DNA of 64,000 nt from a virus (taxonomy: Duplodnaviria > Heunggongvirae > Uroviricota > Caudoviricetes), in IMG/VR virus record IMGVR_UViG_3300037423_001636, positions 141,169 to 205,168 of that record. The stretch is one strand, 5' to 3'. Shown piece after piece: positions 1,855-41,172 of the stretch. The notes beneath the pieces were generated by a model that was not told where the DNA came from, searched no databases, and saw only the letters and a program-made list of their open reading frames with translations. The translations under genes and the position numbers were made by a program. Numbering within the stretch: the first letter of the stretch is position 1; each line of letters opens with the position of its first letter.

Positions 1855-3363
1855 ATGGCGCAAGCACTCTTTTCTATTGATCACGAGAAGCACTTCCTCT
1901 CGGCGGTCATCAAAAACCCAATCGTCCTAGCCGAATGCCCTCTCATCAACGAGAGAGATTTCAGCGATATCAACCGTCCAGTCTTTCAGACGGTTAAGAT
2001 GATTCTAGCCAGTGGAGCCGATTTCTCCAAGTTTGTGCTAATTGACCGGCTGGCCGCGATGGGATTGAAAATCGGCGGCGTAATCGAGCCAGCTACCTAT
2101 GTCAACGCTCTGGACCTGCTCAACGTCTCTGACAAAGCGGCGGCCAGCATCGCGAAGGAGATTAAGCGAACCACCGTTAGGCGCGAGCTGAACGCAATTG
2201 GCCGCTCCATTCAAAACACAACAGAGGATGACAAAAAGGGTAAGAAAGCATCGGAGCTGGTGGCTGAGGTTACGGCCATCTTCAATCAGCATATTAATCT
2301 GATTGAGGGGAGTAAGGACCATGAGCCAAAGGACCTGTACGGCACTACCGACGACTTCCTAGAGAAGGAAAATGACTTTGATGTCAAGAGCCTGCCGAGT
2401 CCGTTCCCTATCTATAACGACATGTACGGGTACTTTGACCCCGGCAATATCTACTGTTGGATAGCCCGCATGAAGGTTGGAAAGAGCAGCTTCGCCATGT
2501 CCATGTTCCAGCAGATGGCGTTAGCGGACAAAGACGGATCTTTCAGAGCTTTGGTGCTGGATACGGAAATGGGCACTGAAGAAGTCCAGAGTCGCATCAT
2601 CGCGTCTCTCAGCGGAGTGAAAGAATTTTACATTCGCCACAAGCTCTATCGCCAGAACAAGCATATGCGGGATAAGATTGATAAGGCGCGGGAATTGATG
2701 CGCCCGCTATGGGGTAAAATTGACCACGTGTTCATTGGCGGAATGAGTCTGGACGAGCAAATTAGTGTCGCGCGTCGATGGAAGGCCAAGCGTGTCGGGG
2801 CTGGCGAGCGGGGATTAATGGCTCTTGACTATTTCAAGCTTGGTTCTGCGTCCGAGTTCGATAGTCGCAACTCTCGCGATATAGTGATCGGTAAGAAGGT
2901 TGATGCATACAAGAATCTGAGCAAGGAACTGCGCATACCCATCGTGGCATTCGGGCAGGCCAACCGCGAAGGCGAGGATAGCAAGGCAGGTAGCAAGGTG
3001 CAGAACTCCAGCGTAATCGGCGGTTCCGATATGATCGCCCAATTCTGTTCGAACATCTATCTTCTATCCCGACTTTCTCCGGAAGAACGTGTCTGGCTCA
3101 ATCAGGTTGCGCCGGGTTCGGCTACTCACTCCCTCAGGCTCATCGCGCCGCGGCAGTTGGGACCAAACGAATTGGGACAAGACTGTCTAGTGAGGTATAC
3201 TGACGACAGGGGCAAGGAACGGTGGTCAGAGAACTTCCTTCTATTCTCCTTCGAAAATTTCGTGTTCCGTGAGGTTTGTACTTTCAGGGACATCGTTCAG
3301 CGTGGAGAGTTGGTCGCTAATGTCCAGCAGGGGCACGGTGGGCCGGCGGGACCAATGCTCTAA
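1855..3363 (+). CDS. DnaB-like replicative DNA helicase
   Basis: 502 aa. There is a RecA-fold Walker A motif (ARMKVGKSSFAMSM). A DnaB-like C-terminal motif (VAFGQANREGE) corresponds to the DnaB arginine-finger region. The gene lies directly upstream of the primase. Confidence 0.75.
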   Translation: MAQALFSIDHEKHFLSAVIKNPIVLAECPLINERDFSDINRPVFQTVKMILASGADFSKFVLIDRLAAMGLKIGGVIEPATYVNALDLLNVSDKAAASIAKEIKRTTVRRELNAIGRSIQNTTEDDKKGKKASELVAEVTAIFNQHINLIEGSKDHEPKDLYGTTDDFLEKENDFDVKSLPSPFPIYNDMYGYFDPGNIYCWIARMKVGKSSFAMSMFQQMALADKDGSFRALVLDTEMGTEEVQSRIIASLSGVKEFYIRHKLYRQNKHMRDKIDKARELMRPLWGKIDHVFIGGMSLDEQISVARRWKAKRVGAGERGLMALDYFKLGSASEFDSRNSRDIVIGKKVDAYKNLSKELRIPIVAFGQANREGEDSKAGSKVQNSSVIGGSDMIAQFCSNIYLLSRLSPEERVWLNQVAPGSATHSLRLIAPRQLGPNELGQDCLVRYTDDRGKERWSENFLLFSFENFVFREVCTFRDIVQRGELVANVQQGHGGPAGPML

Positions 3364-3368
3364 TTTCC

Positions 3369-4217
3369 ATGCCCCTCGACCGCTCCAAACTTCACAAGGT
3401 TGTCATAACATCCGACGGCTTTCAGGCACAATGTCCAGAGTGTGCGCGCAACGGCCATGATTCAACAGGAAATCACCTCAGAGTCTGGGGCACAGGAAAA
3501 TGGTCATGTGTGCTTTATCCATCCGACGAAAGCCACAATCGCGCCATCTGGGAGCTTGCCGGCGACGAGTCTTCAGAACCCGCATTCGACGCCGTTCAGC
3601 TACCCACCCTAGAGCTAGATCGTGTATGGGATGTCTCTCTATTGGACGGACTGGTTAAGGATTATTCGTATTGGGAGGGGCGTGGCATATCGCGCGAAAC
3701 AATAGAACCATTCCGGGGCGGCGTCGCCACCAAAGGCCAACTAGATGGGCGATGGGTCATACCAATCTTCAACTATCAAAACGATGAACAGATCATCGGA
3801 TTTACTGGCCGCGCTCTGAAACCCGGCATGCTGCCGAAATACAAGCATCTTGGCAAGGTATCCCGCTGGGTCTGGGGCGGACTTGAAGACATCCAGTCCA
3901 GCCGCCGCGCCATTCTCGTGGAATCTCCCGCTGACGTGCTGTTTCTTAGAGAGCATGGAGTCTACGATGTGATCTGCCTATTTGGGGTCAATTTGTCTCA
4001 GAACGTGCTGGGATTTCTAATTGCCGCAGACCCGGAGCAAATCATCGTATCCACGAACAATGACAGCAAGCATAGAGTGGGGCAGATGGCCGCAGAGAAG
4101 ATCAAGAAAAGTCTTGATCTATTTTTCAGTCCCGAGACGATAGAGATTATACTGCCGCCGGCTAAGGACTGGGCGGATAGTCTCCCAGAGAGAATACGAG
4201 ACACATTTCATCAATGA
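3369..4217 (+). CDS. DNA primase (zinc-binding CHC2 finger + TOPRIM domain)
   Basis: The N-terminus reads CPECARNGHDSTGNHLRVWGTGKWSCV, a zinc-ribbon motif. A TOPRIM-like segment ILVESPADVLFLREHGVYDVICLFGV follows. The gene sits next to the helicase. Confidence 0.7.
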   Translation: MPLDRSKLHKVVITSDGFQAQCPECARNGHDSTGNHLRVWGTGKWSCVLYPSDESHNRAIWELAGDESSEPAFDAVQLPTLELDRVWDVSLLDGLVKDYSYWEGRGISRETIEPFRGGVATKGQLDGRWVIPIFNYQNDEQIIGFTGRALKPGMLPKYKHLGKVSRWVWGGLEDIQSSRRAILVESPADVLFLREHGVYDVICLFGVNLSQNVLGFLIAADPEQIIVSTNNDSKHRVGQMAAEKIKKSLDLFFSPETIEIILPPAKDWADSLPERIRDTFHQ

Positions 4218-5056: not shown

Positions 5057-5518
5057 ATGAGCCTCCAAGAATCCCCCAAGACGTACACGCTTGGCATTAT
5101 CGTATCCAAGTCCTTTGACGATCCCTCATGGCTGGAGGAAAAGCTGGGCGACAAACTCGACCGCATCAAACACATTAACACGAACGGTGTGAATCCTCTT
5201 GTCATGGAATTTGCGTTGGAGAACGGTATTCCGTTTTCAGTCTTCCCTCTGAAGGGCGGCAAGTCCGCCCCGTGGAGCAACGCTCGAATCGTGGAACTAT
5301 CTGATGTTGTCTATATAATCGGCACTCCGGGCTCCAAGAATGCGCGTGCCGCTGAGGCTGAATGCGTGAAGGAGGGTCGGCGCTGTCATGTCTTCGAATG
5401 TGACACCATCGCTCACTGGAAGGAAAAGGTGTATAAGGTAGCAGAGATATTGGCAGCGACTACGGTGGAAGACAGGGCGAACAATACGTGGATGCGGGCA
5501 ATCGACAAGGCGATCTGA
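5057..5518 (+). CDS. SLOG / DUF2493 (YspA-like) domain protein
   Basis: 153 aa. The Rossmann-like core GIIVSKSF...NGVNPLVMEFALENGIPFSV...VVYIIGTPGS resembles the paralogue at 40790-41170 and DUF2493 / DprA-like SLOG proteins. Confidence 0.45.
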   Translation: MSLQESPKTYTLGIIVSKSFDDPSWLEEKLGDKLDRIKHINTNGVNPLVMEFALENGIPFSVFPLKGGKSAPWSNARIVELSDVVYIIGTPGSKNARAAEAECVKEGRRCHVFECDTIAHWKEKVYKVAEILAATTVEDRANNTWMRAIDKAI

Positions 5519-6525
5519 TGGCCGAGCCGCCCCAAGTGACCAAACCTCTCTGGCTGTCTGCGTCCAAGATTGACACCTTCCAGAATTGCTCGGCTCTGTA
5601 CAGCGCGAAATATCTTTGGCGTTTGCCAGACCCCAGCAATGATGGCGCTCGTCGCGGCTCCGCAGTCCACGATGTCCTCGAAATCCTCCTGCGTCCGCGT
5701 CACAGACGAATCTACGACGCCGCTATAGAAGCGGGCACCTGTCAGAAAGTCCCGGCTCTATGGAGAGTTGTGGAGCGCAAGGCTCGCAAGTATCAGGTGG
5801 CCGATGACGAGAATATCGAGATGATTGATGCGTTCATCATGGTAGCCCTGAAACACGAGTTTCATGGACCCAAAGGAACCACTGAAATTGTGGGAGAAAA
5901 GCCGTTCGAAATCAGCGTCAACATGGGCGGCAAACGGTACAACGTGCGAGGCAAGATAGACCGGACCGCGACAGTGAAGGACAAGACTGGGGTCGTTATC
6001 TGGGTTAGGGACTATAAATCCTCGAAGGAAAAGTTCAAGGGCGAAAAGCTCACCTACAACATACAATCCCTGATGTACCAGCTTGCTCTGCGCCACCTCT
6101 ATCCACAGATCAAGCGGCGGAACTTCGACTTTCTGTTCGTCAAGTTCCCACGCGAGCCGATTCAAACCCAGCCCAGCTTCACCGATTTGGAGCTTGACGG
6201 ATTCGAGTGGATTCTCACGGAGCTTCAGTCTTCCATGGAGTCATTCACTATGGACAATGCTCTGGACAACGCGGCGGCCGGCGATCCAGAGCGCGGCTGG
6301 CTCTGCGGCAAAGAGGGCAAGAAGAAGAATGGTCAGCCGAATTGGATTTGCGGGATGCGTTTGCCGCGAGATTACTGGGTGTTGCTAGAAGGCGGAGAGA
6401 TTCAGGAGAGCTGGGACAATGAGCCGGCAATCACTCCAAAGCCGGGGCAGACTCTGGAGAAGCGCTATTATTCTGGCTGCCCCGCTCACTTCAACTCGCG
6501 CGGGCAGAGACGGAATTTCTCTTGA
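5518..6525 (+). CDS. PD-(D/E)xK nuclease, Cas4/RecB-like exonuclease family
   Basis: The sequence GKIDRTATVKDKTGVVIWVRDYKSSKE...YNIQSLMYQLA fits the D...(D/E)YK...Q.Y nuclease core. There are cysteines near both termini. The start codon makes an ATGA overlap with the previous stop. Confidence 0.55.
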   Translation: MAEPPQVTKPLWLSASKIDTFQNCSALYSAKYLWRLPDPSNDGARRGSAVHDVLEILLRPRHRRIYDAAIEAGTCQKVPALWRVVERKARKYQVADDENIEMIDAFIMVALKHEFHGPKGTTEIVGEKPFEISVNMGGKRYNVRGKIDRTATVKDKTGVVIWVRDYKSSKEKFKGEKLTYNIQSLMYQLALRHLYPQIKRRNFDFLFVKFPREPIQTQPSFTDLELDGFEWILTELQSSMESFTMDNALDNAAAGDPERGWLCGKEGKKKNGQPNWICGMRLPRDYWVLLEGGEIQESWDNEPAITPKPGQTLEKRYYSGCPAHFNSRGQRRNFS

Positions 6526-6555
6526 CCTGTCCACCAAGGTAGAAAGACTGATAGA

Positions 6556-7419
6556 ATGTCCAGACCGTGGGAGATTCCATCCGGTAGAATTCTAGTCTTC
6601 GGAGATGTCCATCAGAGGCTTAACTGGGCCGACGTTGTGCTGGAGCATGAAAAGGGGAACTACGATCATATTGTATTTGGAGGCGACATAATCGATTCTC
6701 ACGATGCTCCCCCCGCAGTTTCCGGTGCCAGAGAGACAGCTCGCTGGTATGCGCGGCTGATAGAATCTCCGAATACAACGGTGCTGATGGGCAATCACGA
6801 TCTGCCGCAGTTCGAATCTCACTCTCATTCTCGCGCCCATCGTCACAAGCGCCCGCTTTTCAATGCTTGTTCCGGATTCACTCATTCCAAAGCAATTGAG
6901 TTCGCCAAGGAGATGACGCATGATCTTTGGCGCAAGGTCCGACTGTTCTGTGTGGCGAACGGATGGCTGCTCTCTCACGCGGGTATTCAGGAGAATAGCT
7001 GGCAGAACCATTTGGCAGCCGAGACAAATCTAGATCGGCTGTGGAACGAAGCGGACGAGGCACTGGAGGCAGCTCCGTTTAAGCCTCATAGACTTTTCGC
7101 GTGCGGATATAATCGTGGCGGCGACGCCAATTATGGAGGACCGCTGTGGCTCGATTGGGACACAGAATTTGAGGACGTTCTTCCGTATCCACAGATTGTA
7201 GGCCACACCCACAAACTAAACGCTCACCGCCGCATTGGTCGCTCTTGGTGCATAGACTCTGGAACCGGCTATGTCATTATAGCGCCAGACGGAACGGTCG
7301 AACACAAGAGGCTCTGGCGGGCGCGCGATTGGAATAAGGACGATGGTTACGTGTGGATTTCCGGAATACCCACAATCCGCGATGATACGGAACATGCTTT
7401 TCAACGAAAGAGGAATTGA
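6556..7419 (+). CDS. Metallophosphoesterase (lambda-PPase / Ser-Thr phosphatase-like)
   Basis: The motifs ILVFGDVHQ (DxH), HIVFGGDIIDSHD (GDxxDRG-like) and VLMGNHDL (GNHD/E) are present, with downstream GH motifs. Confidence 0.7.
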   Translation: MSRPWEIPSGRILVFGDVHQRLNWADVVLEHEKGNYDHIVFGGDIIDSHDAPPAVSGARETARWYARLIESPNTTVLMGNHDLPQFESHSHSRAHRHKRPLFNACSGFTHSKAIEFAKEMTHDLWRKVRLFCVANGWLLSHAGIQENSWQNHLAAETNLDRLWNEADEALEAAPFKPHRLFACGYNRGGDANYGGPLWLDWDTEFEDVLPYPQIVGHTHKLNAHRRIGRSWCIDSGTGYVIIAPDGTVEHKRLWRARDWNKDDGYVWISGIPTIRDDTEHAFQRKRN

Positions 7420-7923
7420 TTGATTATGTGTTCAGCAACCAATCGTGGGGCAACCCGCAATGATAGAGACTTCTACGCTACGCCGGAATCAGCTTTCAAA
7501 CCGTTGCTTCCTTACCTTCACACACCAGAGAACAGATCAATTTGGGAACCCGCCTGTGGAGATGGTCGATTGGTCCGTTGGATGACCGAAGATGGGCTGA
7601 TCGCCGGTGGCACCGACCTGAGTCTAGGTAACGACTTTCTCAAGGATCTTACTCCGCGGGAATGTATCGTAACCAACCCCCCATTCTCTCTTGCGCAGGA
7701 GTTCTGCGATCATGCTTTCAGCCTCGCTCCAGAAGTTTGGATGCTGTTGCGTCTCAATTTCCTCGGGGCACAGAGACGACGGGACTGGTGGAAAGCTCAC
7801 GAGCCAGCCGCGTTGTTCGTGTTGTCCGCGCGCCCTTCGTTCACACAAGACGGTAAGACGGACGCGACAGACTACGCATGGTTTGCGTGGACCAATCGAT
7901 ATAAGGGGATTTATCACCTATGA
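7420..7923 (+). CDS. Small phage Dam-like DNA N6-adenine methyltransferase
   Basis: 167 aa. Motif I reads EPACGDG and motif IV reads IVTNPPF (the D/NPPF N6-adenine methyltransferase catalytic motif). The size fits the small phage Dam family. Confidence 0.6.
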   Translation: MIMCSATNRGATRNDRDFYATPESAFKPLLPYLHTPENRSIWEPACGDGRLVRWMTEDGLIAGGTDLSLGNDFLKDLTPRECIVTNPPFSLAQEFCDHAFSLAPEVWMLLRLNFLGAQRRRDWWKAHEPAALFVLSARPSFTQDGKTDATDYAWFAWTNRYKGIYHL

Positions 7924-8411
7924 GCCGCCCGCTTGCTCCGCGTGGCGGGAATGACTGTGTGATGACACCTCCTTTCTACGTCAATCTAATCCTCAATCAT
8001 TTCGCCCCACAAGGTCTCTGTTTGGAGCCGTGCCGCGGCACAGGAGGTTTCCAGTTGGATGGCTGGGACTGGTGCGAGATTACAGAGGGCCGGGATTTTC
8101 TCACATGGGATTTTGGCACGAAGCACTATGACTGGATCGTGACAAATCCTCCATGGTCTAAACTGCGGTTGTTCCTCGTACGTTCTATGCGGCTAGCCGA
8201 TAATGTGGTCTTTCTGTGCCTCGTGAATGCCCTTTGGATGAAAGCGCGGCTCCGCGATATAGACTCAGCTGGATTCGGCATCCGAGAGATCTTATTGCTC
8301 GACACGCCGCCCAAGCCGTGGCCCCAAGCTGGATTTGCTCTTGGCGCAATTCACATACAGCGGGGTTATAAGGGCAGTATTGAACTGAGCGACAAGAGGA
8401 CAAAGCAGTGA
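7920..8411 (+). CDS. Second small Dam-like N6-adenine methyltransferase (tandem paralogue)
   Basis: 163 aa. Motif I reads EPCRGTG and motif IV reads IVTNPPW. The start makes an ATGA overlap with the upstream methyltransferase gene. Confidence 0.55.
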   Translation: MSRPLAPRGGNDCVMTPPFYVNLILNHFAPQGLCLEPCRGTGGFQLDGWDWCEITEGRDFLTWDFGTKHYDWIVTNPPWSKLRLFLVRSMRLADNVVFLCLVNALWMKARLRDIDSAGFGIREILLLDTPPKPWPQAGFALGAIHIQRGYKGSIELSDKRTKQ

Positions 8412-9238
8412 GTGACATCATTCCCCTCTTCTCCTCGGCGGCCAGCCTCAAACAGGGCGGCATCTTCACGGTCGATAAAGTCGGTGACGTGGAAGCTCGC
8501 AAAAAGGAAGGTCGTAAGCGCGGCCCGCTGTCCCTGTGCAGTCTAGCCAAGGATGAGGGAATGAAGCGACTCTATATGGTCGAATCGAATTTCGTGAACT
8601 ATATGAGTGCGTGGAAGAACCTGAGGGAAGTTGGCTGCGACCTACACTTTGGACTTAAGCTAGTCATCTGTGAAAACATGGCCGACAAATCCGAAGCGTC
8701 CATGGACACGGAATCCAAGGTGGTGATCTGGCCGGCGTTGGATTCTACGACTGTATATAGCGCGCTCTGCAAGCTGTTCACGAAAGCGGCTAACGACGGT
8801 TTTTACTACGTGCCGCGGCTGGATTGGAAGACTCTATGCGCGATGTGGTCAGACGACCTGTTGCTCAGCCTGCCATTCTACTCGTCGTTCCTTGCCAAGA
8901 ACACGCTCACGTTCTCATCCATCGCGCCGCAACTCCCGGTGGTCCCGCTGCTCCTGCGCGAGATCGATCAGCAGCTTCCTATTGATGGTCTGCTCAACAG
9001 TGCTGTGGACCGCTATGCGGCGGCGAATGGACTCAAGGTTCAGCCGGTCAAGAGTGTATATTACAAACTGCGCGACGATGCTAAACCGTTTCAGGTGTGG
9101 CGGTGCGTGCTTAATCGCTCTGGCAAAAGCACATACGACAAGCCAAATATGGATTTCATGCAAAGCAGAGAATTCTCATTCGAGGCGTGGAAAGAATTGT
9201 CTGCGCAGCAGATAGTGAGTCCAAAGGGCAAACAATGA
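8408..9238 (+). CDS. Hypothetical protein
   Basis: 276-aa ORF on the coding strand, translationally coupled to both neighbours by start/stop overlaps. Confidence 0.45.
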   Translation: MSDIIPLFSSAASLKQGGIFTVDKVGDVEARKKEGRKRGPLSLCSLAKDEGMKRLYMVESNFVNYMSAWKNLREVGCDLHFGLKLVICENMADKSEASMDTESKVVIWPALDSTTVYSALCKLFTKAANDGFYYVPRLDWKTLCAMWSDDLLLSLPFYSSFLAKNTLTFSSIAPQLPVVPLLLREIDQQLPIDGLLNSAVDRYAAANGLKVQPVKSVYYKLRDDAKPFQVWRCVLNRSGKSTYDKPNMDFMQSREFSFEAWKELSAQQIVSPKGKQ

Positions 9239-9882
9239 GCGTTGGTGCCGACTTGCTTAGGTTTTCGGATAGGAAGCTGCTCTTTTGGGATCAGGAATCG
9301 AGCTGTCTGAATATCATGCAGTCGAATCTTCCTTTTCAATGCACGTGGCTAATCGCCGATCGCCACCATATTCACAGTACCCACAACTACTATCTGAAGT
9401 GGCCCAATTTCCGCATGAGCGCAGATGCCGCCACTATCACTCACTTTCAACAGAGCTGGGTGGACAATGGGGATGATCCGGAGTTCGTGCTCGACGTGTT
9501 TGAGGGGTACTTATTTGACCCGCAATACCTGATAATCGGGCATTCGATTCTCGCCTTCGATAGCGCTCTTCATCAGCTCTGGCGGCGGGCGCTTGGCCGC
9601 AAGCCAGACTACTCCTATCTCACTAGAATCATTGACACTCACCTCATCTCTCGGGCCATGAAGAAACGTTGGAAGCCGGATAGGTCTAGTCCGGAAGCAT
9701 TCCTCGCTTGGCAGTATAAAGTGGCTGACGCATGGGAGGCGAACGTGAAAACGAATCTAGGACTGATGGCAGAGGAGCTGGGGGTGACGGTGGACAAGAC
9801 TAAACAACATGACGCTCTGTACGATCTGGCCGGGCTGAACTACGGCGTGTATAAAGGACTGATCCAGAAGGTGGAGATATGA
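9235..9882 (+). CDS. DnaQ-like (DEDDh) 3'-5' proofreading exonuclease
   Basis: Exo I reads LLFWDQES (DxE). Exo II reads GHSILAFDSALH (H-x-x-x-FD). Exo III reads HDALYD (H-x4-D). The gene is translationally coupled to the polymerase by an ATGA overlap. Confidence 0.6.
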   Translation: MSVGADLLRFSDRKLLFWDQESSCLNIMQSNLPFQCTWLIADRHHIHSTHNYYLKWPNFRMSADAATITHFQQSWVDNGDDPEFVLDVFEGYLFDPQYLIIGHSILAFDSALHQLWRRALGRKPDYSYLTRIIDTHLISRAMKKRWKPDRSSPEAFLAWQYKVADAWEANVKTNLGLMAEELGVTVDKTKQHDALYDLAGLNYGVYKGLIQKVEI

Positions 9883-12584
9883 CTCTAGCCGACCTACAAC
9901 CTCTCAGCAAGGTCCCATTCCATGGGGTCATTTTGCCCACGTTCGACGTTAGCCTCGACCAGCGGGCCACCGCAGGAGCAAAGGAGAGCTGTTCCAATCT
10001 AGAATTCCTCACTCAGCTCTGTAGAGAAGGATACAAGCAGAAGGTTCTGAATCGTATTCCAAAGGACCAGCAGCCCACCTATACTGAGCGTGTGAAATTC
10101 GAGCTGGATACAATCAACACCCTTGGCTTCACGGACTACATTCTCATGGTCTGGGATATTTGCAGATTTGCCGACGAGAGGAAAATCCCTCGCGGCCCCG
10201 GTCGCGGTTCGGTGTCATCGTCACTCGTGTGCCATCTCATAGGGCTCACAGAACTGGACCCGATTGAATACGGTCTTTTCTTTACTCGTTTCCTATCCAA
10301 AGCCCGCGCCAAAAGCAAGACAGTCGGTGACGTGGTCTATATGGACGGTGGCCTTGTTCCCGACGTGGACATGGACTTTGACTACTACCGTCGCCACGAA
10401 ATTTTCGATTATCTCAAGGAACGCTATCCCGGCCAGACAGCGCATACACTTACGACTACAACCCTCACGTCCAAGTCTCTTATCATGGAGGTAGTCAAGA
10501 TATTCGAGGGTGGCTCCGAAGAAGATGCGCAGGCGGCCAGCGATCTGGTTGAGAAGGAGAGTGGGGTGCCAGAAGAGATCGAGGACGCCATATCAGACGA
10601 TCCGAAGAAGCAGAACGCTCGCTTCAAGGAATGGGCCAAAGACCATCGGGAAGCGGTGGAAATAGCTATGGACATTTCTGGGCTTAACAAGTCCGAAGGC
10701 CAGCACGCATCCGCTTTACTCATTTGTTCCACAAAAATCGATGAGATCATGCCGCTGCAATCGGCCACAGACGATGATGGCGTTCGTCACACGGTCTCAG
10801 GCTACGACATGTATAGCGCGCAAGAAATCTGCCTCAAGTTCGACATCCTAGGACTGAAGACTTTGTCGGTAATCGATGACGTATGTCGCCGAGTCGGGAT
10901 CAAGCTGCGGGGTATGGATGGAGTGCATGACGAAGCGATCTACAGGACTCTACAAGACTTTAAGCATCGCGTAGGAATCTTTCAGCTAGAAACGTTCGCG
11001 CAGGGTAATGCAGCAGCCAAGGTAAAGCCGCGGGACTTTGAGCAGCTTTCAGCCATCCTTGCTATCGCGCGGCCGGGAGCATTTGCCTATATCGACAACT
11101 ACGTCAAATACGTAAATGAGGGAGTATTTCAATCTGTTCATCCGCTCATCGATCCGATCCTCAAGCCAACCGGCGGTGTATCTGTATATCAGGAACAATA
11201 TTTGATGATGTTGAAGGCTGTGGGTATGCACGAAGACCGTGCTGAAAATGCGCGAAAGGTGCTCGGCAAAAAGCTAAAGGAGAAAGTCCCGGAGGTGAAG
11301 GCAGAGATTCTAGAAGTCTGCAAGCGGGAGGGGCGGCCGGTGGAGATAGTGGACTTGCTCTTGAAGATTGCGGAAGATGCTGGTGGATATGCGTTCGCAA
11401 AAGCACACGCTTTTTCGTACGCGATCATCACCGCCCGGTGCATGTATCTGAAAGCCCATTACCCGACCGAATTCTACTGGGCCGTTCTTAGGATGATCCG
11501 CCACGAGTCCAAGAAATACGAAGAACTGGGCCACGTTGACAGAGAGATGCGGACCACTGGCTTTCAGCTGCTGCCCCCTCAACTCTCCACCGGCATGGAT
11601 TTCGAGATTGAAGGCGACCGTAAGATTCGCTTTGCGTTGGGAATGGTACGCGGTGTGTCAGACAAAAGCCAGCCGCTCCTAGAGACTTTCGTCGGTAGCG
11701 GTGTTGTTAAGGAGGGAATGGATAAGTTCTCTATCTTTCAAGCACTCAAGAATGCTGGGCTCAATGTGGGAATAGGGGCGTCGCTCATTCAGGCTGGGTG
11801 CATGTGTGCTTACGACACTTACAAGGACGAGAATGGCGTGCCCTATCGCTCGCGTTCGCGGCTAGTCTTGGAGCTTCTCACATTTAATCTGCTCAACGAT
11901 ACTACGAAAAAACACCTCATGAACGTCGGCGACAAGCCCGAGGTGAATTGGGACGTGATTGCTGGACTCAAGTATCTTGCCGCCCAGCTTAACGACAAGG
12001 GCAAGCCGCTGATTCCAGAGAAGTCGCTCAACGTGATTCGGCGTGATTATAAGCCATACGCCGACATCTACGAGATGAATCGGCGCAATGAGAGATTGGC
12101 CAACTACTTCTACGAGAAGCGGGTTCTCGGCTACTCCTACTCGGAGACTCTTCGCTCGATCTTCGGCGCGCAGGTAGACGATTTGTCTAGTGTCGCCGAG
12201 GTGCTGGCGGCTCCGGCGGGCGAGCTGGTGCGGATGATTGGCTTCGTGGCTGACCCCTTCAAAGGCAAGACGAGGAAGGGGAACAGAGAATTCAAGTTCA
12301 AGCTGCTGGATGAGACCGGCGAGATTCGAGTCAAGGCATTCAATGAGCGGATAGACCTGATAGAGCAGGAGAACGGCGGGGTGTTGCCGATCAAAGAGGA
12401 CCTCGTTATTTTGAATGGCAAGGTCATGGATGGCGACTGTGTGTTCGTACAAACGGGGATCGATGGCCACTGTCTCGGCATACAAACAAATCGCATTTAC
12501 ACCCGCCTCGGCGATTTGAGCGCAAAGAGCAAGAAGGGCAAGAAGTCCGCGGCGGCGGGTGAACAGAAAACTGCCTCTGCGTAA
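9879..12584 (+). CDS. DnaE-type (Pol III alpha, family C) DNA polymerase lacking an N-terminal PHP domain
   Basis: 901 aa. The Pol III alpha catalytic region reads GFTDYILMVWDICRFADERKIPRGPGRGSVSSSLVCHLIGLTELDPIEYGLFFTRFLS. The catalytic aspartates lie in PDVDMDFD. An OB-fold-like C-terminus is present. The palm motifs begin about 100 aa in, so no PHP domain precedes them. Confidence 0.8.
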   Translation: MTLADLQPLSKVPFHGVILPTFDVSLDQRATAGAKESCSNLEFLTQLCREGYKQKVLNRIPKDQQPTYTERVKFELDTINTLGFTDYILMVWDICRFADERKIPRGPGRGSVSSSLVCHLIGLTELDPIEYGLFFTRFLSKARAKSKTVGDVVYMDGGLVPDVDMDFDYYRRHEIFDYLKERYPGQTAHTLTTTTLTSKSLIMEVVKIFEGGSEEDAQAASDLVEKESGVPEEIEDAISDDPKKQNARFKEWAKDHREAVEIAMDISGLNKSEGQHASALLICSTKIDEIMPLQSATDDDGVRHTVSGYDMYSAQEICLKFDILGLKTLSVIDDVCRRVGIKLRGMDGVHDEAIYRTLQDFKHRVGIFQLETFAQGNAAAKVKPRDFEQLSAILAIARPGAFAYIDNYVKYVNEGVFQSVHPLIDPILKPTGGVSVYQEQYLMMLKAVGMHEDRAENARKVLGKKLKEKVPEVKAEILEVCKREGRPVEIVDLLLKIAEDAGGYAFAKAHAFSYAIITARCMYLKAHYPTEFYWAVLRMIRHESKKYEELGHVDREMRTTGFQLLPPQLSTGMDFEIEGDRKIRFALGMVRGVSDKSQPLLETFVGSGVVKEGMDKFSIFQALKNAGLNVGIGASLIQAGCMCAYDTYKDENGVPYRSRSRLVLELLTFNLLNDTTKKHLMNVGDKPEVNWDVIAGLKYLAAQLNDKGKPLIPEKSLNVIRRDYKPYADIYEMNRRNERLANYFYEKRVLGYSYSETLRSIFGAQVDDLSSVAEVLAAPAGELVRMIGFVADPFKGKTRKGNREFKFKLLDETGEIRVKAFNERIDLIEQENGGVLPIKEDLVILNGKVMDGDCVFVQTGIDGHCLGIQTNRIYTRLGDLSAKSKKGKKSAAAGEQKTASA

Positions 12585-12652
12585 CAGGGCGCGGAATCCA
12601 AGATTCTCATTGACTCCATAATCAGCGCAATTAAACTCAACTCACATACAAC

Positions 12653-12892
12653 ATGAATGACACTCCTCTGAAGACCGAGGTCTTCGTCCGAGGCAGACAA
12701 AAAGCGGAAAACACAGAGTATCGTCCGGACGGTCTCACAATCCGGGAATATTTTGCGGCCCACGCCCTTCAGGGTATCCTTGCCAGCTGCAACTATACAA
12801 GGTTCGTCACACCCTCGACACGAGCGGTACAAATGGCTGACGCTCTAATCGAAGAGCTTTTGAAACCAACTAACGATACGACCACTACATGA
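12653..12892 (+). CDS. Hypothetical small protein
   Basis: 79-aa ORF in the gene-dense plus-strand series. Confidence 0.35.
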   Translation: MNDTPLKTEVFVRGRQKAENTEYRPDGLTIREYFAAHALQGILASCNYTRFVTPSTRAVQMADALIEELLKPTNDTTTT

Positions 12893-13284
12893 TTGACCTA
12901 ATTGGGCTGCCCGACGAAACGAGAGATGAAGTAAAAGCTGCGCTCAACACGATCTCCGAAGCTTTACAGGGGAAGTTTGATTTCACAGTGGAGCAAGTGG
13001 AGCAGGCTAACCCCGACTGCTTCTGGGTGGTGTGTGAAGCGGGGGGATACCAAAACGCTGGATTCGCTGGTTGGGACAAAGAGAAGAACGAGCTGGCATT
13101 CGTCTGTCTCGATCCGTCGCGAGCTAAGCACGATGAAGTGGAGGGGGTTCCCGAGGATGAGTCGAAGTGCTGGTGGCGGGCGACTGACACTGAGATATTT
13201 ATCATGCATCTAAACGGGAGCGTGCGAGAAATTTTGAAGAAGGATCGGGAGAGTGCGGCCCACACCGAGGAAGAAGCGGCATGA
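12889..13284 (+). CDS. Hypothetical protein
   Basis: 131-aa ORF whose start makes an ATGA overlap with the previous gene. Confidence 0.4.
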   Translation: MIDLIGLPDETRDEVKAALNTISEALQGKFDFTVEQVEQANPDCFWVVCEAGGYQNAGFAGWDKEKNELAFVCLDPSRAKHDEVEGVPEDESKCWWRATDTEIFIMHLNGSVREILKKDRESAAHTEEEAA

Positions 13285-16143: not shown

Positions 16144-17007
16144 GTGGCAAAAAGACCTACAGTAACATTGGTGTGCGCATATACTGGAGAGACATTCGAG
16201 AAAGATCGTCGAGAATACCATCGTCAGCTTCGTAATGGGGCCACTCACTTTTACAAGGACAGTAAAGCAGCTGCTTTGGCCAGCGCTGAGGCAAGACGAC
16301 TGAAGCCAGTAGATAGGATTTGTCCACATTGCGGAAACACTTTCGAGGTGATACCGAGACGCCGGGCGGCGACATTTTGTTCTTCTCGTTGCGCTGCCCA
16401 CTATGGGCATGATCAGCTTAAAGCGAATCCGGAGCGAATGCTTACATTTCAAGAAAATGCGTCTGCGGCAGGAAAGAAAGCGTGGGCCGCCGGAAAACAC
16501 GATAACGCCATTCATCGAAATGGGCGTCGTCGCGCAAAAATCGAATCGCGTGGTTGCGCGGTGTGTGGTGCTGGGTTCGAATGCAAAGACAACAGCAAGC
16601 GCAAAACCTGCGGCAAGCCAGAATGCAAAAGGGAGGCTACTGCTCGCGGAGTTAGAGCCAACCCCAATTGTGGTGGAGAAAGCAATTATAGACGCTACAG
16701 ATACAAAGACATTTTGTTTGATTCGGCGTGGGAGCTTGAGATCGCTCAGTGGATGGACGGGGTTGGTATGCAATGGATTCGAGACAAAAAGATCTGGTTT
16801 CGCTGGACAGATCAAAATGGCACGATTAGACGTTATCACCCAGACTTCTACTTGCCCAGTTTTAATATTTATCTAGATCCCAAGAACAAGTTTCTACTGG
16901 AACGAGACGCTTTCAAGCTAGAGGCTGTGAAACGTGAGCATGGCATCAATCTCGTTTGGGGGAGTAGGGAAGAGATTTTAGTCTTCCTTCAGAATCTATT
17001 GGGGTAG
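16144..17007 (+). CDS. Putative homing endonuclease (N-terminal zinc ribbons + C-terminal PD-(D/E)xK-like nuclease domain) inserted in the tRNA array
   Basis: 287 aa. There are several CxxC pairs (CPHCG, CAVCG, CGKPEC). The C-terminus reads DSAWELEIAQWMD...YHPDFYLPSFNIYLDPKNK...EHGINLVW, the restriction-endonuclease-like pattern of phage homing endonucleases. It is the only ORF inside the tRNA array. Confidence 0.5.
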   Translation: MAKRPTVTLVCAYTGETFEKDRREYHRQLRNGATHFYKDSKAAALASAEARRLKPVDRICPHCGNTFEVIPRRRAATFCSSRCAAHYGHDQLKANPERMLTFQENASAAGKKAWAAGKHDNAIHRNGRRRAKIESRGCAVCGAGFECKDNSKRKTCGKPECKREATARGVRANPNCGGESNYRRYRYKDILFDSAWELEIAQWMDGVGMQWIRDKKIWFRWTDQNGTIRRYHPDFYLPSFNIYLDPKNKFLLERDAFKLEAVKREHGINLVWGSREEILVFLQNLLG

Positions 17008-22340: not shown

Positions 22341-22431
22341 TATGGGGCTGCTAGCGTATTCGCTAATTCTCCGTGATATTCTCTATACAATTCCCCACGG
22401 GCAATCAAGCTTTGTGGTGGCGCTAATAAAC

Positions 22432-23850
22432 ATGAAGACCAATAAAAAGTCAGTATCGACATTCAAGACCGCCCCGGCCGCCAAGCGTGTTGCCGGTGGT
22501 TCCGGCGCTGTCGCCGACACGATTACTGCGGAGCAAACTCTCCGTCGTTGCGTGCTAACCAATCTCCTGTGGGAAGATTGTGCGTATGAATCCGGAGTGG
22601 AGATCGCACAAAAAATCCGCGAGACCATTCCGCAGGTTCCCGCCGATCGCGTCGCAGCAATCGCCATCGAAGCGCGCGGCCAGCAAAAGCTCCGCCACGT
22701 TCCGCTGCTCCTCGTTCGCGAGATGGCGCGGTTGGATACACACCGCCATGTCGTGGCTGACACTCTTCCCCAGATCATTCAGCGGGCCGATGAGCTTGCT
22801 GAGTTTTGCGCAATCTGGCAGAAGGACGACAAAAAGCCGTTGTCCAAGACCCTATCAGCGCAAGCCAAGAAGGGTCTGGCCCGCGCCTTCGTCAAGTTCG
22901 ACGAATATGCTCTTGCGAAGTACAATCGCGACAACGCGGTCAAGCTGCGCGATGTGCTGTTCCTTTGCCACGCCAAGCCGGAAAACAAGGCTCAAGAGAA
23001 GCTGTTCAAGCGGCTGATCAACGATGAGCTGAAGACCCCGGACACGTGGGAAGTTGAGCTGTCGGCCTCCACCGACAAGAAGGCTTCATGGACTCGTCTC
23101 CTCGAAGAGGCCAAGCTTGGCGCTCTAGCCTTCATCCGCAACCTGCGCAATCTGACTCAGGCTGGCGTCGAGAAGAATCTCATCCGAGACTACTTCAAGA
23201 CGGTCAACCCGGAACGCGTTCTTCCGTTCAACTTCTTGTCCGCAGTTCGTGAGGCTCCAGAATACACCGCTCAGCTTGAGACCCTCATGCTGAAGTGTCT
23301 GGCAACCTTCCCGAAGCTGAAGGGCAAGACGGTGTTTATTGTTGACGTGTCGGGCTCGATGACCAGTGGGTTAGCCGGCAAGTCGTCCATGAACCGACTC
23401 GACGCAGCAGCGGCACTGACTGCGCTGATGCGGGAAGTCTGCGAAGAGCCAGTTATCTACGCTACGGCTGGATGTGACGGTTCTCGCAAACACGAGACGA
23501 AGGAAGTCCCAGCGGCCCGCGGTTTCGCGCTGATGGAAGAGATTCGCAAGATGCAGCACTCCCTCGGGGGTGGTGGTATCTTCCTCTGCCAGAGCACGAA
23601 GTTCGTTAAGGAGCTGGAGAAGACGGCTGATCGGCTTATTGTCCTGAACGACAGCCAAGATTGTGACTATGTGAAGGACCCGAATCAGGCGGCAGCGTTT
23701 GGTCGGTTCAACTATCTCATGGACGTTTCTTGCCACACGAAGGGTGTAGCCTACAAAGCTTTCACTCACATCGACGGCTGGAGCGAAAGTGTGATTAACT
23801 TCGTATATGAGACGGAGCGCATGGCGCTTCAATCGCGGCAGAAGAAGTAG
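22432..23850 (+). CDS. rsr: Ro60 / Rsr orthologue (TROVE domain + C-terminal vWA domain)
   Basis: The N-terminal TROVE-like region reads ...RRCVLTNLLWEDCAYESG...HVPLLLVREMAR.... The C-terminal vWA/MIDAS reads KTVFIVDVSGSMTSG. The architecture matches Ro60. The start was moved from the six-frame ORF (22342) to the ATG at 22432 because the extension overlaps an RNA hairpin. Confidence 0.75.
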   Translation: MKTNKKSVSTFKTAPAAKRVAGGSGAVADTITAEQTLRRCVLTNLLWEDCAYESGVEIAQKIRETIPQVPADRVAAIAIEARGQQKLRHVPLLLVREMARLDTHRHVVADTLPQIIQRADELAEFCAIWQKDDKKPLSKTLSAQAKKGLARAFVKFDEYALAKYNRDNAVKLRDVLFLCHAKPENKAQEKLFKRLINDELKTPDTWEVELSASTDKKASWTRLLEEAKLGALAFIRNLRNLTQAGVEKNLIRDYFKTVNPERVLPFNFLSAVREAPEYTAQLETLMLKCLATFPKLKGKTVFIVDVSGSMTSGLAGKSSMNRLDAAAALTALMREVCEEPVIYATAGCDGSRKHETKEVPAARGFALMEEIRKMQHSLGGGGIFLCQSTKFVKELEKTADRLIVLNDSQDCDYVKDPNQAAAFGRFNYLMDVSCHTKGVAYKAFTHIDGWSESVINFVYETERMALQSRQKK

Positions 23851-24700
23851 CCTTCTGTATAGCAGCATACGCTTCCTCCTCGCTCGGAAAGTAGCCCACA
23901 AAAGCTCTTCCTAGCCGGGTTGGAAGCTGTGCTTTCCATGGGTCCCGAGTGCGCGCCTTCACTCGGGAAACCCCTTCAAATCTAGAGCTGAGCTTTAGCG
24001 CTTTGTCTCGAATCGTCATATAGGCGGCTTGCTTGCGAGGCAGAGCGAGATCGGTTCCAGAGCCCCAAATGTAGTCTCCCAGAGCATATACGGGCCGACG
24101 CCCGTTGACTCGGAAGACACTCCCTTTCCCTCGTTCGTTCGTTGTGATGTCGATTCGATATTCGACGCTGAGTCGTTTACAGAGATCGCTCAGAAAGGAC
24201 CAATCCTGATCGGCTGGTCCCGCAATCTGGATCTCATGAGTGCCAAATCGCGGGTCAACACATACGCATCCATCTCCATCAATCAATCCCAGATACCAGT
24301 AGCACTGTAGATGTGACGGGATGGTGTCTAGTATCGCCCGTGGAGAACTCGACTTAGAACAGTAGCCAAGAGCGCTCAGATGTTCGACGAGATAGTGGTT
24401 GGTTGTCGTAATCACCCACGCATTTTTCCACCCCTCATTTCGAGAGGGTTTAGAGTAGCATCCCCACCGCCCGGTGCGCAGCATAATGGGTCTGAAGTGT
24501 TCAACGTCTGGCGATGTCGTGGATAGGACTACGCTTTGTGTTCTATGTGTGTTTCGGATGTGCCCATCGGCCCAAAGCAGGCCGAGGATATAGGCGTGAA
24601 CAGGCTCTGTCACGTGAATGAATGGCTGTGGATTCACAGCGTATTGGTCGAACGGCTTGAGCCGGCGTTTGACTGGTCTGGGGATGGTATTGGTCTGCAT
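23795..24700 (-). CDS. LAGLIDADG homing endonuclease (two LAGLIDADG motifs, AP2-like C-terminus)
   Basis: Minus strand. The motifs are YILGLLWADGHI and YWYLGLIDGDGCV. An AP2-like DNA-binding tail GYFPSEEEAYAA follows. The gene is free-standing between the Ro60 gene and further tRNAs. Confidence 0.8.
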   Translation of the reverse strand: MQTNTIPRPVKRRLKPFDQYAVNPQPFIHVTEPVHAYILGLLWADGHIRNTHRTQSVVLSTTSPDVEHFRPIMLRTGRWGCYSKPSRNEGWKNAWVITTTNHYLVEHLSALGYCSKSSSPRAILDTIPSHLQCYWYLGLIDGDGCVCVDPRFGTHEIQIAGPADQDWSFLSDLCKRLSVEYRIDITTNERGKGSVFRVNGRRPVYALGDYIWGSGTDLALPRKQAAYMTIRDKALKLSSRFEGVSRVKARTRDPWKAQLPTRLGRAFVGYFPSEEEAYAAIQKATSSAAIEAPCAPSHIRS

Positions 24701-33894: not shown

Positions 33895-34980
33895 ATGACT
33901 CCTCCCGTCTCCATTCCTACAGCGCTTGAACTTCTTCGCACCATGACGCGGCCAGAAGAGATCTTCGGCGCGAACCCCGCCGACCTAGAGGACGTGTGGA
34001 AACTCTGGGCAAAGCGCGTTCATCCCGACATGGCTCCGACTGCGAAGCTAAAGGAGTTAGCCGACGAAGCGTTCAAACTGCTTACGGCCCTCAGAACGCA
34101 GGCCGAAGACAGAATCAGCCGCGGAGTTTACGGTTCCAAAACCCCCACTGTACTCGCAACTCTACGCACCAAGACCGCGGCCTATTCTCTCCACGTTCAA
34201 TCTGGCTCCGACGACATCTCAGACTATTTTGAAGGAGAGTCAGACAAGGCGGCGCAATGTGTCGTGCGGGCTGGCCGGGACCCGCGGAACAACGATCTTA
34301 TGAAGACCGAGGCTGATGTGCTGGCTGCACTCCCCGCCAAGCTGGAGCCCAAGCATGCGGCCTATTTCCCCGTTTTACTCGACTCATTCGAGGTTCAGGA
34401 GGGTAGCACGAAACGACGAGCGAATGTGTTCGTTCCTTCCGTCGGGGCCGTGACTCTGGAAGCGGTGCGAGCTGCATATCCCAAAGGGCTTGATGTGAAA
34501 GATGCGGCGTGGATGTGGAACCGAATGTTGGAGGCGCTGCATCTGCTTCACGGTCAGGGCTTCGTCCATGGGAACGTTACCCCAGACAGATTCACCATCA
34601 TTCCAGATACTCACGTTGGGACTCTGCGAGACTTTGCCTACGCGGTGAAGGCCGGCGGAAAGGCTAAGGCCATCAGCCCCAAGTGGCGTACATTCTATCC
34701 ACCAGAACTGACGGAGAAGAAAGAGCTTGACTTTAGCGCCGATCTGTTTTCTGCTGCCCACTGCATGAATTTCCTCCTCGGCGCAGACCTCGGCTCGACT
34801 CGCATCCCCGCTGGTATTCCAGTGGCGGTTGCGGGGCTCTTGCGGGCCTGCTGGTTGGGAAAGGCTCATCGGGTGAAATCTGCTCAGGAATTGCACGCGG
34901 ACTTCAAGGAGGTTCGCAAGGGTCTTGGCTGGAAGAGTGAGTTTAGAGCGTTCAGTGTCCCAACCGCAGTTTCAGTCTAA
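33895..34980 (+). CDS. J-domain (DnaJ-like, HPD motif) fused to a protein-kinase-like domain
   Basis: The N-terminus ...DLEDVWKLWAKRVHPDMAPTAKLKELADEAFKLLTAL matches J-domain helices II-III with the HPD motif. The C-terminus has a kinase-like catalytic loop LHGQGFVHGNVTPDRF (HGD/N-x4-N type) and a DF(G)-like LRDFAY. Confidence 0.5.
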   Translation: MTPPVSIPTALELLRTMTRPEEIFGANPADLEDVWKLWAKRVHPDMAPTAKLKELADEAFKLLTALRTQAEDRISRGVYGSKTPTVLATLRTKTAAYSLHVQSGSDDISDYFEGESDKAAQCVVRAGRDPRNNDLMKTEADVLAALPAKLEPKHAAYFPVLLDSFEVQEGSTKRRANVFVPSVGAVTLEAVRAAYPKGLDVKDAAWMWNRMLEALHLLHGQGFVHGNVTPDRFTIIPDTHVGTLRDFAYAVKAGGKAKAISPKWRTFYPPELTEKKELDFSADLFSAAHCMNFLLGADLGSTRIPAGIPVAVAGLLRACWLGKAHRVKSAQELHADFKEVRKGLGWKSEFRAFSVPTAVSV

Positions 34981-38110: not shown

Positions 38111-38742
38111 CAGATTGTCAAAGCTGTGCTTTGGCGCTTGACAGATAGTGCAGAGTGTAGATGATGGTTCTCATGCCGAACCTACTGCGTGAAGGTATTT
38201 CCGCAATTCGACTCTCCTACGTAAAGCGGTTTGCTTCATTCGTACTGAGCTTGTCCGGCTATTCAGTTTTATTCTGGGCGGACTGGAGAGTCGCGCTTGG
38301 AGTCTGGCTCCTGCAATGGGGCGGCAATGTTTATCGTTCAATCGGCAGCTAATCTCAACCCTTTCATTCATTCTCATGGAAATCCGGCATGTAGACGGTT
38401 CCGTATCGGATACCGACAAACTCCCTGACACCACGGCCTTAGTTATGGAGAAAGTCAAGGAACTCCTTGACCTCTGTGAGGCGCATAAAATCCCGCTTCT
38501 GCTTAGGTTCAGTACCCATGATGGCAAGCACTCCGGCGCGCACTGCGCTCTTCATCCCACGAAGGAGGCCGGGCAAGTGATTATTGAGTTGGTGAGCGAT
38601 TGGTGCGATTTGATTGAGAGGTTCTGGCCGGGTTGTCGGGTCATGATCGTGCATGGAGAGCCGCCGGATGACTTGGACGACACAATGCGGAGATTGGACG
38701 AGCCGCCGCCGCCCACAATCTAAGCCTAGACTTAATCTCGTC

Positions 38743-40789: not shown

Positions 40790-41170
40790 ATGAAGCTCGC
40801 CATAATCGGCTCGCGGTCCTTTCAGGACTACGATTTACTCTGTCAGACCATGGACAAATGGTTTTACGAGCCTCGTGGCGGAACATCGTGTCCGATGTGG
40901 CTCTACAACGTTCGTGAGATTGTATCAGGCGGCGCGGCTGGAGCAGATAGCCTTGGTGCCCGCTGGGCCAGAGAGCAGGGGATCAAGCTGACCGAATTCA
41001 AACCGGATTGGGAGAAACATGGGAGGCGAGCTGGTTTTATCCGGAACGAGGATATAGTGGCCGCTTCAGACGTGGTGCTTTCATTTTGGGATGGGGTAAG
41101 CCGGGGCACTGCAAACAGTTTATCGATTGCCAAGAGACTCAAGAAGCCGACGATCATCATCTATTTCTGA
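40790..41170 (+). CDS. SLOG / DUF2493 (YspA-like) protein, second paralogue
   Basis: The sequence MKLAIIGSRSF...VSGGAAGADSLGARWAREQGIKLTEF...VVLSFWDG matches the SLOG Rossmann signature (GSR...GGA.G.D). Confidence 0.55.
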   Translation: MKLAIIGSRSFQDYDLLCQTMDKWFYEPRGGTSCPMWLYNVREIVSGGAAGADSLGARWAREQGIKLTEFKPDWEKHGRRAGFIRNEDIVAASDVVLSFWDGVSRGTANSLSIAKRLKKPTIIIYF

Positions 41171-41172
41171 CC

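Follow-up and report, generated by a model that had tools for sequence, protein, structure and literature searches.

A DnaE-type (family C) replicase is encoded in a 64,000-nt stretch of a tailed-phage genome (Caudoviricetes; IMG/VR record IMGVR_UViG_3300037423_001636, positions 141,169 to 205,168), hereafter the window. We consider it likely that this replicase is produced from three consecutive, coupled cistrons, encoding in order an inactive PHP domain supplied in trans, a DEDDh exonuclease and a polymerase core, and that the three products assemble in the manner of the DNA polymerase III (Pol III) core. The initial annotation of this DNA had presented a compact replicase without a PHP domain. 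This is accurate for the 901-amino-acid (aa) polymerase polypeptide, which begins at the palm, but not for the replicase as a whole, whose PHP domain is encoded at 8408-9238, two genes upstream of the polymerase.

The polymerase, PHP and exonuclease genes

Among solved enzymes, the polymerase open reading frame (ORF) scores far better against DnaE than against PolC (E 1e-74 vs. 2e-9, respectively). Together with its Pfam matches (Table 1), this agrees with the DnaE-type identity first assigned from the GRGS (residues 108-111) and PDVDMDFD (residues 161-168) motifs. The catalytic residues D162 and D164 (10362-10370) and D322 (10842-10844) are invariant in 82 aligned polymerase sequences, as are G106, R109, G110 and S111 of the GxGRGS loop, and the catalytic motifs align with PDIDTDF and LKMDFLGL of the Thermus aquaticus (Taq) enzyme. 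The equivalent aspartates of E. coli alpha are D401, D403 and D555. Residues 39-611 of the window protein align to 287-860 of E. coli alpha and residues 69-645 to 384-947 of Taq alpha, with a weak second phmmer stretch between residues 731-826 and the Taq OB fold (997-1087; conditional E 9e-6). Several homologues of the polymerase have a precomputed PF01336 match. The NCBIfam DnaE model NF004226 is covered from position 282 to 1032 of its 1146 positions, at a score (372.5 bits) far under the equivalog cutoff of 1002 that denotes orthology with cellular DnaE; the protein belongs to a divergent viral lineage.

No Pfam match to a PHP domain was found in the 901-aa ORF, and since the alignments begin at E. 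coli residue 287 and position 282 of the DnaE model, we place its start at the PHP/palm boundary. It ends about 50 residues past the OB fold. A PHP domain within the first 100 residues and membership of another polymerase family, the two results that the initial annotation had named as contrary to its proposal, were both looked for and neither was seen; a PHP domain encoded in trans had not been foreseen. Some homologues of the polymerase are longer, at about 1300 aa, and have intein/LAGLIDADG Pfam matches (P0006, P0045, P0046 and P0076), while the polymerase gene of locus L019 has an insertion of about 370 nt (12598-12969) near query residue 505, which points to inteins inside the core of some homologues of the window polymerase.

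The ORF at 8408-9238, whose TGA stop codon overlaps the ATG of the exonuclease gene, is the detached N-terminal domain of the window's own DnaE polymerase. Its match to the Pfam PHP model (E 1.5e-4, 22.5 bits) lies below the PF02811 gathering score of 26.4, a score that is passed by several of its relatives (50.1 bits for P0337, for example). We collected 129 homologues from a protein collection clustered at 90%; nearly all are 250-295 aa long, with about 260 aa being typical, most have a precomputed PF02811 match, and the contigs that encode them have the same lengths as those encoding homologues of the polymerase and of the exonuclease. A profile built from 42 of these sequences aligns in register with residues 98-252 of Taq DnaE, in its PHP domain, at E 3e-11. 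On phrog_405, a phage DnaE profile of 1190 positions, the PHP ORF occupies positions 68-292 and the polymerase ORF positions 325-1048. Structure prediction, performed on monomers, gave an AlphaFold2 model of the PHP protein with a mean predicted local distance difference test (pLDDT) score of 92.1 and the distorted (beta/alpha)7-barrel of the PHP fold. The best 23 Foldseek matches of this model in the PDB were all PHP domains of Pol III alpha or PolC (E 7.7e-13 to 1e-3), the first non-polymerase match appearing only at E 0.095.

The relationship is most directly seen in relatives where the two parts are fused. One such protein, P0118 (PHP plus polymerase, 1149 aa), was found among the polymerase homologues, and its N-terminal 262 residues match the standalone-PHP profile with E 3e-75. 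When the PHP and polymerase ORFs of the window were joined, BLASTP aligned residues 1-1156 to residues 1-1119 of P0118 as one segment (33.6% identity, E 0), and the joined sequence likewise aligns as one segment with the fused proteins P0356 and P0390. A single collinear alignment of this kind indicates that the break falls in the PHP-palm linker and that no residues are missing. In a neighbour-joining tree of the polymerase, P0118 is nested in the split clade. The PHP tree has fused forms at scattered positions, two of them (P0478 and P0479) being basal beside fused outgroups. Repeated fission or fusion is suggested by these trees but not established; since both are poorly resolved and lack support values, they give no firm polarity.

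The metal site of the PHP protein is degenerate. P-L-F stands where the canonical site has HxH, (E)SN where it has (T)DH, G-L-K where it has GxE and (K)SxY where it has (N)DxH, so that at least six of the nine canonical ligands are replaced. No His, Asp or Glu residue is invariant in the 42 aligned sequences. A published criterion takes any departure from the nine-residue set HHDHEH[C/H]DH to mean an inactive PHP exonuclease (PMC12926913), and by this criterion the PHP protein of the window is almost certainly catalytically inactive. It is nevertheless well conserved: on matched contigs, identity to the window protein is 56-62% for the PHP, 53-58% for the polymerase and 51-54% for the exonuclease, indicating that the dead PHP is constrained at least as much as the two enzymes.

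The gene between them encodes a DnaQ-like exonuclease of 215 aa, whose ATG at 9235 agrees with the N-termini of its homologues. Its family comprises 94 proteins, a PF00929 match being precomputed for many of them, and the residues of ExoI (D19/E21), ExoII (D109) and ExoIII (H192/D197, in an Hx4D arrangement) are invariant in 37 homologues. Judging from these residues, the exonuclease keeps a complete DEDDh site and is predicted to be catalytically intact. The best PDB match of the family profile is the Thermotoga maritima PolC domain 2p1j (E 3e-10, vs. 2e-3 for E. coli epsilon), and phrog_192, annotated as 'DNA polymerase exonuclease subunit', also matches (E 7.7e-6). The AlphaFold2 model (pLDDT 95.5) has an RNase H-like DEDD fold; among its 184 Foldseek matches at E<=1e-3, the top one is PolC (9qrn; root-mean-square deviation of 2.9 A over 205 columns), and other DEDDh nucleases come next.

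The coupling of the exonuclease to its neighbours through an ATGA overlap at both junctions is as first annotated, and the enzyme is likely to be the proofreader of this polymerase. Purine-rich Shine-Dalgarno-like sequences lie ahead of the starts in the window, and the one preceding the polymerase start at 9879 reads AAGGTGGAG.

Table 1. Replicase genes of the window, their junctions and domains, and the helicase and primase genes upstream.
Feature	Position	Strand	Remarks
Standalone PHP-domain protein	8408..9238	+	276 aa; GTG start, GTGA overlap with upstream stop; metal site degenerate
ATGA overlap, PHP stop / exonuclease start	9235..9238	+	sequence reads caaacaATGAgc
DEDDh (DnaQ-like, PolC-type) 3'-5' exonuclease	9235..9882	+	215 aa; invariant catalytic residues, PolC-like profile, AlphaFold2 model
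ATGA overlap, exonuclease stop / polymerase start	9879..9882	+	sequence reads ggtggagatATGActc
DnaE-type Pol III alpha core	9879..12584	+	901 aa, ATG start; palm, thumb, fingers, helix-hairpin-helix (HhH) region, C-terminal OB fold; no PHP; no tau-binding tail found
Palm/thumb, Pfam DNA_pol3_alpha, residues 43-325	10005..10853	+	E 4.8e-56, 190.7 bits vs. cutoff 23.9
Fingers, Pfam DNA_pol3_finger, residues 328-484	10860..11330	+	E 4.3e-26, 91.6 bits vs. cutoff 22
C-terminal OB-fold region, residues 731-826	12069..12356	+	DnaE-type position, not PolC-type
DnaB-like replicative helicase	1855..3363	+	Pfam DnaB_C E 1.3e-17; upstream, co-directional
Toprim/DnaG-like primase	3369..4217	+	weak Pfam Toprim_2, Toprim_3, Toprim_4 and DNAG_N

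Conservation of the gene order and competing explanations

We compared the window with six loci obtained by exact-protein look-up and with loci from IMG/VR and GTDB, where scans with the PHP profile gave 3 and 2 loci, respectively, the back-translated pattern used being narrow. The order PHP, optional insert, exonuclease, polymerase on one strand was found in all 14 tabulated split loci, in which the polymerase is 33-100% identical to that of the window. Four further loci fit the PHP-exonuclease-polymerase order: L004 and L014 are duplicates of L003 and L009, L021 is truncated (PHP and exonuclease) and L024 is the same phage in a second assembly. The exonuclease-polymerase junction measures -4, -1, +1, +2 or +16 nt in 13 of the 14 loci, the exception holding a 90-aa ORF. 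The PHP-exonuclease junction is tight (-11 to +2 nt) in seven loci, while 280-2814 nt separate the two genes in the other seven. The inserts include LAGLIDADG homing endonucleases (L001, 4524-5366; L002, 4117-5097), an AAA ATPase (L019) and a 932-aa GSDH-like gene (L022). The presence of whole genes between PHP and exonuclease indicates that these are truly separate cistrons.

An exhaustive profile search of 1.84 billion representatives of 50%-identity clusters recovered 289 representatives of the PHP family at E<=1e-30. The best 150 comprise 141 standalone proteins, eight PHP-polymerase fusions and a single PHP-exonuclease fusion (P0458). The last of these (L023, 5001-6413, 470 aa) lies in a RecA-DnaB-primase-PD-(D/E)XK module on one contig, and could possibly result from a single-base assembly indel. 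A few standalone members have an additional N-terminal DUF4326 (P0345, P0377, P0420) or C-terminal PD-(D/E)XK-like domain; at L005, DUF4326 is a separate gene just upstream of a fused polymerase. The proteins P0336-P0343, P0369 and P0385, of about 450 aa, have an extra C-terminal 150-220 aa or so with D...E-x-K-like motifs. They were considered as PHP-exonuclease fusions and rejected, since hhalign against the exonuclease profile gave a probability of 0.2 and the tails are PD-(D/E)XK-like.

Members of the standalone PHP family number in the hundreds and come without exception from metagenomes or metagenome-assembled genomes, and the contigs of the relatives are mostly 120-210 kb long, several being 164-210 kb. 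Two records of metagenome-assembled genomes, titled Gemmatimonadaceae and Proteobacteria, are short contigs whose binning is doubtful, and they do not serve to assign a host. Deposited phages gave no near-identical DNA match to 8408-12584, and none of 50,697 phage records yielded a homologue when the PHP ORF and the exonuclease were used as tblastn queries, so that this PHP/exonuclease family appears to be absent from catalogued phages. For the polymerase and the DnaB helicase, catalogued phages offer relatives of at most 30% identity. The source of the window is an uncultivated jumbo-phage lineage without a close catalogued relative. The same phage was present in a second independent sequencing run (L024/L025; Logan SRR35148478, 121-kb contig), in which the window proteins that we looked up are identical and gene lengths agree throughout the replication module; upstream of the region corresponding to the window, this contig encodes RecA, class I ribonucleotide reductase subunits and sugar-modifying enzymes.

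We propose that the PHP protein, the exonuclease and the polymerase core assemble non-covalently into a complex resembling the Pol III core. The dead PHP would dock on the core at the place taken by the covalent PHP domain in DnaE and would stabilise or activate the polymerase, the exonuclease would carry out 3'-5' proofreading, and the stop/start codon overlaps may match the amounts in which the subunits are synthesised. The PHP probably also offers a docking surface to the exonuclease, by analogy with E. coli, where epsilon reportedly binds the PHP domain of alpha. In bacterial replicases, a separate proofreader accompanies the loss of metal ligands from the PHP, and the role of the E. coli PHP is structural, stabilising or activating the enzyme (Barros et al. 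2013, PMC3666897). The pairing of a degenerate PHP with a dedicated DEDDh nuclease in the window is the co-occurrence documented in that study, which also describes the N-terminal PHP as strictly conserved in bacterial replicases.

Several observations weigh against this proposal. The window PHP and exonuclease proteins score below the Pfam gathering thresholds, and their membership is established through family profiles and structure. The exonuclease stops 18 residues past D197 and has neither the C-terminal alpha-binding tail nor the clamp-binding motif of epsilon. No conserved QxxLF-type clamp motif was found in the alignment of the polymerase family, and the search for clamp and clamp-loader genes that the initial annotation recommended found neither a beta-clamp nor a clamp loader in the window and 10 kb on either side (about 84 kb of the ~205-kb contig). 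Lastly, the PHP-exonuclease fusion of L023 has no polymerase within 2.7 kb downstream, and the exonuclease of L005 lies 3.2 kb from the fused polymerase; these exceptions make the linkage strong rather than absolute. Two paralogous classical AAA+ ATPases of the window (38653-40239 and 47548-49092) are FtsH/CDC48-type by NCBIfam and match phrog_7485 and phrog_10440; they were examined as clamp loaders and set aside, their weak similarity to clamp loaders (E 8e-5) being probably that of generic P-loop proteins.

A bolder reading, to which we give a small but real chance, is that the PHP is a dissociable, swappable adaptor joining a PolC-like proofreader to a DnaE core, its presence tuning stability, fidelity or partner choice during infection. 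On such a reading, the scattering of fused and split forms and the insertion hotspot between PHP and exonuclease would amount to a natural experiment in modular family-C assembly, and might be an echo of how the PHP-exonuclease-polymerase order of PolC originated.

It is improbable that the exonuclease serves recombination, processing of primers or Okazaki fragments, or degradation of host DNA instead of proofreading for this polymerase. The absence of epsilon's polymerase- and clamp-binding segment and the distant exonuclease of L005 would fit such a role, as would the many functions of DEDDh nucleases. However, the exonuclease stop overlaps or abuts the polymerase start at all but one of the 14 loci, its closest solved relatives in both sequence and structure are PolC proofreading domains, and the PHP site, which is the alternative proofreader of family C, is dead, ligand loss at that site co-occurring with a DEDDh proofreader (PMC3666897).

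We find it very improbable that the replicase is a compact DnaE that truly lacks a PHP, working with a DnaQ-like exonuclease while the upstream PHP-like ORF is irrelevant. The polymerase polypeptide itself has no PHP, and its junction with the exonuclease is kept tighter than that between exonuclease and PHP. Nonetheless, every split locus that we examined has the PHP gene upstream, including those whose polymerase is as little as 33% identical to that of the window. The product of this gene is a homologue of the PHP domain of DnaE itself, relatives have it fused to the same polymerase, and the dead domain is conserved as strongly as the polymerase.

Nor do we give much credence to the PHP ORF being an independent phosphoesterase or nuclease that merely travels with the replication module, which strikes us as highly unlikely even though PHP-superfamily proteins often are stand-alone phosphoesterases and unrelated genes can separate this one from the exonuclease. 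The replaced ligands and the lack of invariant His, Asp or Glu residues argue against an enzyme, the structural neighbours are all polymerase PHP domains (other PHP/amidohydrolase enzymes have E>0.09), and fusions to the polymerase exist in relatives.

Finally, the chance is close to negligible that the three ORFs are a PolC-like gene broken by sequencing frameshifts, or are joined by -1 frameshifting or trans-splicing into a PHP-exonuclease-polymerase polyprotein: each downstream ORF does lie in the -1 frame of the previous one with a 4-nt overlap, the domain order is PolC-like and P0458 is a fused ORF, but the three-ORF layout occurs in well over 100 independent assemblies of varied source, no slippery heptamer is present at either junction, and the whole genes (homing endonucleases included) inserted between PHP and exonuclease in half of the loci, the overlaps that vary by locus (-11, -4, -1, +1, +2, +16 nt) and the individual start codons, which agree with the N-termini of homologues and are accompanied in the window by Shine-Dalgarno-like sequences, exclude a frameshifted gene, programmed frameshifting and trans-splicing. 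A split intein has no room for its halves either, since the PHP ORF runs on for no more than some 11 residues past the domain and the N-terminus of the polymerase is not intein-like.

Neighbouring features of the window

The replicase genes lie in a colinear module with the helicase and primase genes upstream (Table 1), all on the same strand, as the initial annotation had reported. This module order recurs in L003, L023 and L024, and the protein at the orthologous primase position in L003/L004 carries DNAG_N. Directly upstream of the PHP gene are two tandem paralogous ORFs of about 165 aa (7420-7923 and 7920-8411), which align to one shared portion of phrog_799, 'DNA methyltransferase' (E 8e-53 and 5e-23, respectively); their equivalent in L001 is one Dam-family gene.

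Further downstream, 18 tRNA genes lie between 15655 and 26413, all on the + strand (5 Leu, 3 Arg, 2 Gln and others; 12 confirmed by Rfam), as is typical of large phages. The array also contains genes for a TROVE/Ro60-like protein with a vWA domain (22342-23850; Pfam TROVE E 1.1e-17) and, next to it, an RNA ligase (25030-26079; PF09414, E 4.6e-33), a pair that may form an RNA repair or quality-control module. No Y-RNA-like Rfam match reached the gathering score. TROVE-like genes (DUF2828/DUF7788) are also found near the polymerase in L002.

The product of 36782-38110 is a divergent homologue of adenylosuccinate synthetase (PF00709, E 4.6e-58) that scores 152 bits against the PurA model (cutoff 402) and 42 bits against PurZ (cutoff 300); these model scores give no evidence for a diaminopurine genome. 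Free-standing homing-endonuclease-like genes, one LAGLIDADG and two HNH, are found at 23795-24700 (-), 27820-28497 (+) and 16144-17007 (+). Other ORFs encode a DUF4419 protein (30195-31295, E 3.6e-34), a PcfJ-like protein (41008-42822, E 3e-13), a Band_7/SPFH protein (52624-54402, precomputed in L025) and a weakly protein-kinase-like product (33895-34980).

Comparison with known replicases

The fused relatives (P0118, P0356, P0390, P0396, P0459, P0478 and P0479) share with the window the PHP subtype with its degenerate motifs, the polymerase core and a separate exonuclease of the same family, but in these proteins PHP and core form one ORF of about 1125-1250 aa and the exonuclease gene lies elsewhere (3.2 kb upstream in L005). 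The E. coli Pol III core (alpha DnaE, epsilon DnaQ and theta) likewise combines a DnaE-type polymerase that has a C-terminal OB fold with a separate DEDDh proofreader, and the PHP domain of its alpha subunit has lost its metal ligands, as in the window, while retaining a structural role and the docking site for epsilon. In contrast to the window, the E. coli PHP is covalently part of alpha and the genes are unlinked. The alpha-binding tail and clamp-binding motif of epsilon have no counterpart in the window exonuclease, nor were the clamp- and tau-binding elements of E. coli alpha found in the window polymerase. A homologue of theta was not seen either, no search having been aimed at one.

PolC of the Firmicutes (Geobacillus kaustophilus, 3f2b; 9qrn) has the same N- to C-terminal order of PHP, DEDDh exonuclease and polymerase. 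However, PolC is one polypeptide with the exonuclease nested in the PHP fold and an N-terminal OB fold, whereas the window encodes three proteins, with an uninterrupted PHP that scores better against DnaE than against PolC (3e-11 vs. 0.05). The uninterrupted PHP, the C-terminal OB fold and the DnaE-like character of both PHP and core indicate that the system is not a disassembled PolC.

Catalogued phage DnaE proteins (those of PB1-like Pseudomonas phages, SSU5 and the actinophage 'DnaE-like DNA polymerase III') are family-C enzymes usually encoded beside a DnaB-type helicase, like that of the window, but their PHP is fused (DL52, 1035 aa; SSU5, 1172 aa) and they are at most 30% identical. According to a survey of viral C-family polymerases (PMC3201878), these enzymes conserve the N-terminal PHP through the fingers; past that point most of them no longer resemble E. 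coli alpha, the protein of a single phage reaching into the OB domain. The window clade is the opposite of this pattern on both counts.

Other split DnaE polymerases differ from that of the window in where they are cut. In the L015 type of phage DnaE, the cut is inside the palm, just before the catalytic PDxDxDF: at L015 itself (5104-8168, on a 255-kb contig from IMG/VR), the first ORF contains the PHP and the start of the palm, and the next begins just before PDxDxDF. This split corresponds to PHROG fragment families 13169/7513 and 12219 and, in BFVD, to entries like that of Pseudomonas phage PA5 (466 aa). Cyanobacterial DnaE is split by a trans-splicing intein, after residue ~774, with intein halves at the break. 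In neither the cyanobacterial nor the L015-type split is there an exonuclease gene between the pieces, and the PHP never stands alone. No standalone polymerase-type PHP of 260 aa was found in BFVD, and a search of the literature found no description of the three-gene PHP/exonuclease/polymerase arrangement. We regard this as an undescribed and widespread architecture, and not a new kind of enzyme.

Every bacterial Pol III alpha contains a PHP domain, yet in some of these enzymes, that of E. coli among them, the domain is catalytically dead and its role is debated, the candidates being a structural stabiliser, a dock for epsilon or a pyrophosphatase. Here, a large phage clade has kept the inactive PHP in the form of a strongly conserved protein of its own beside a dedicated proofreader, providing independent evolutionary evidence for an essential non-catalytic function of this domain. 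The clade also offers a ready-made system for probing what the PHP does, since the subunit can be added or withheld. If the three proteins assemble as we propose, the PHP-palm boundary would tolerate a non-covalent interface, which would be useful for engineering a split Pol III. For annotation, hundreds of metagenomic proteins of about 260 and 870 aa called 'DNA polymerase III alpha' are the two halves of one enzyme and not fragments. Globally, the data correct the published generalisation of an N-terminal PHP in viral family-C polymerases.

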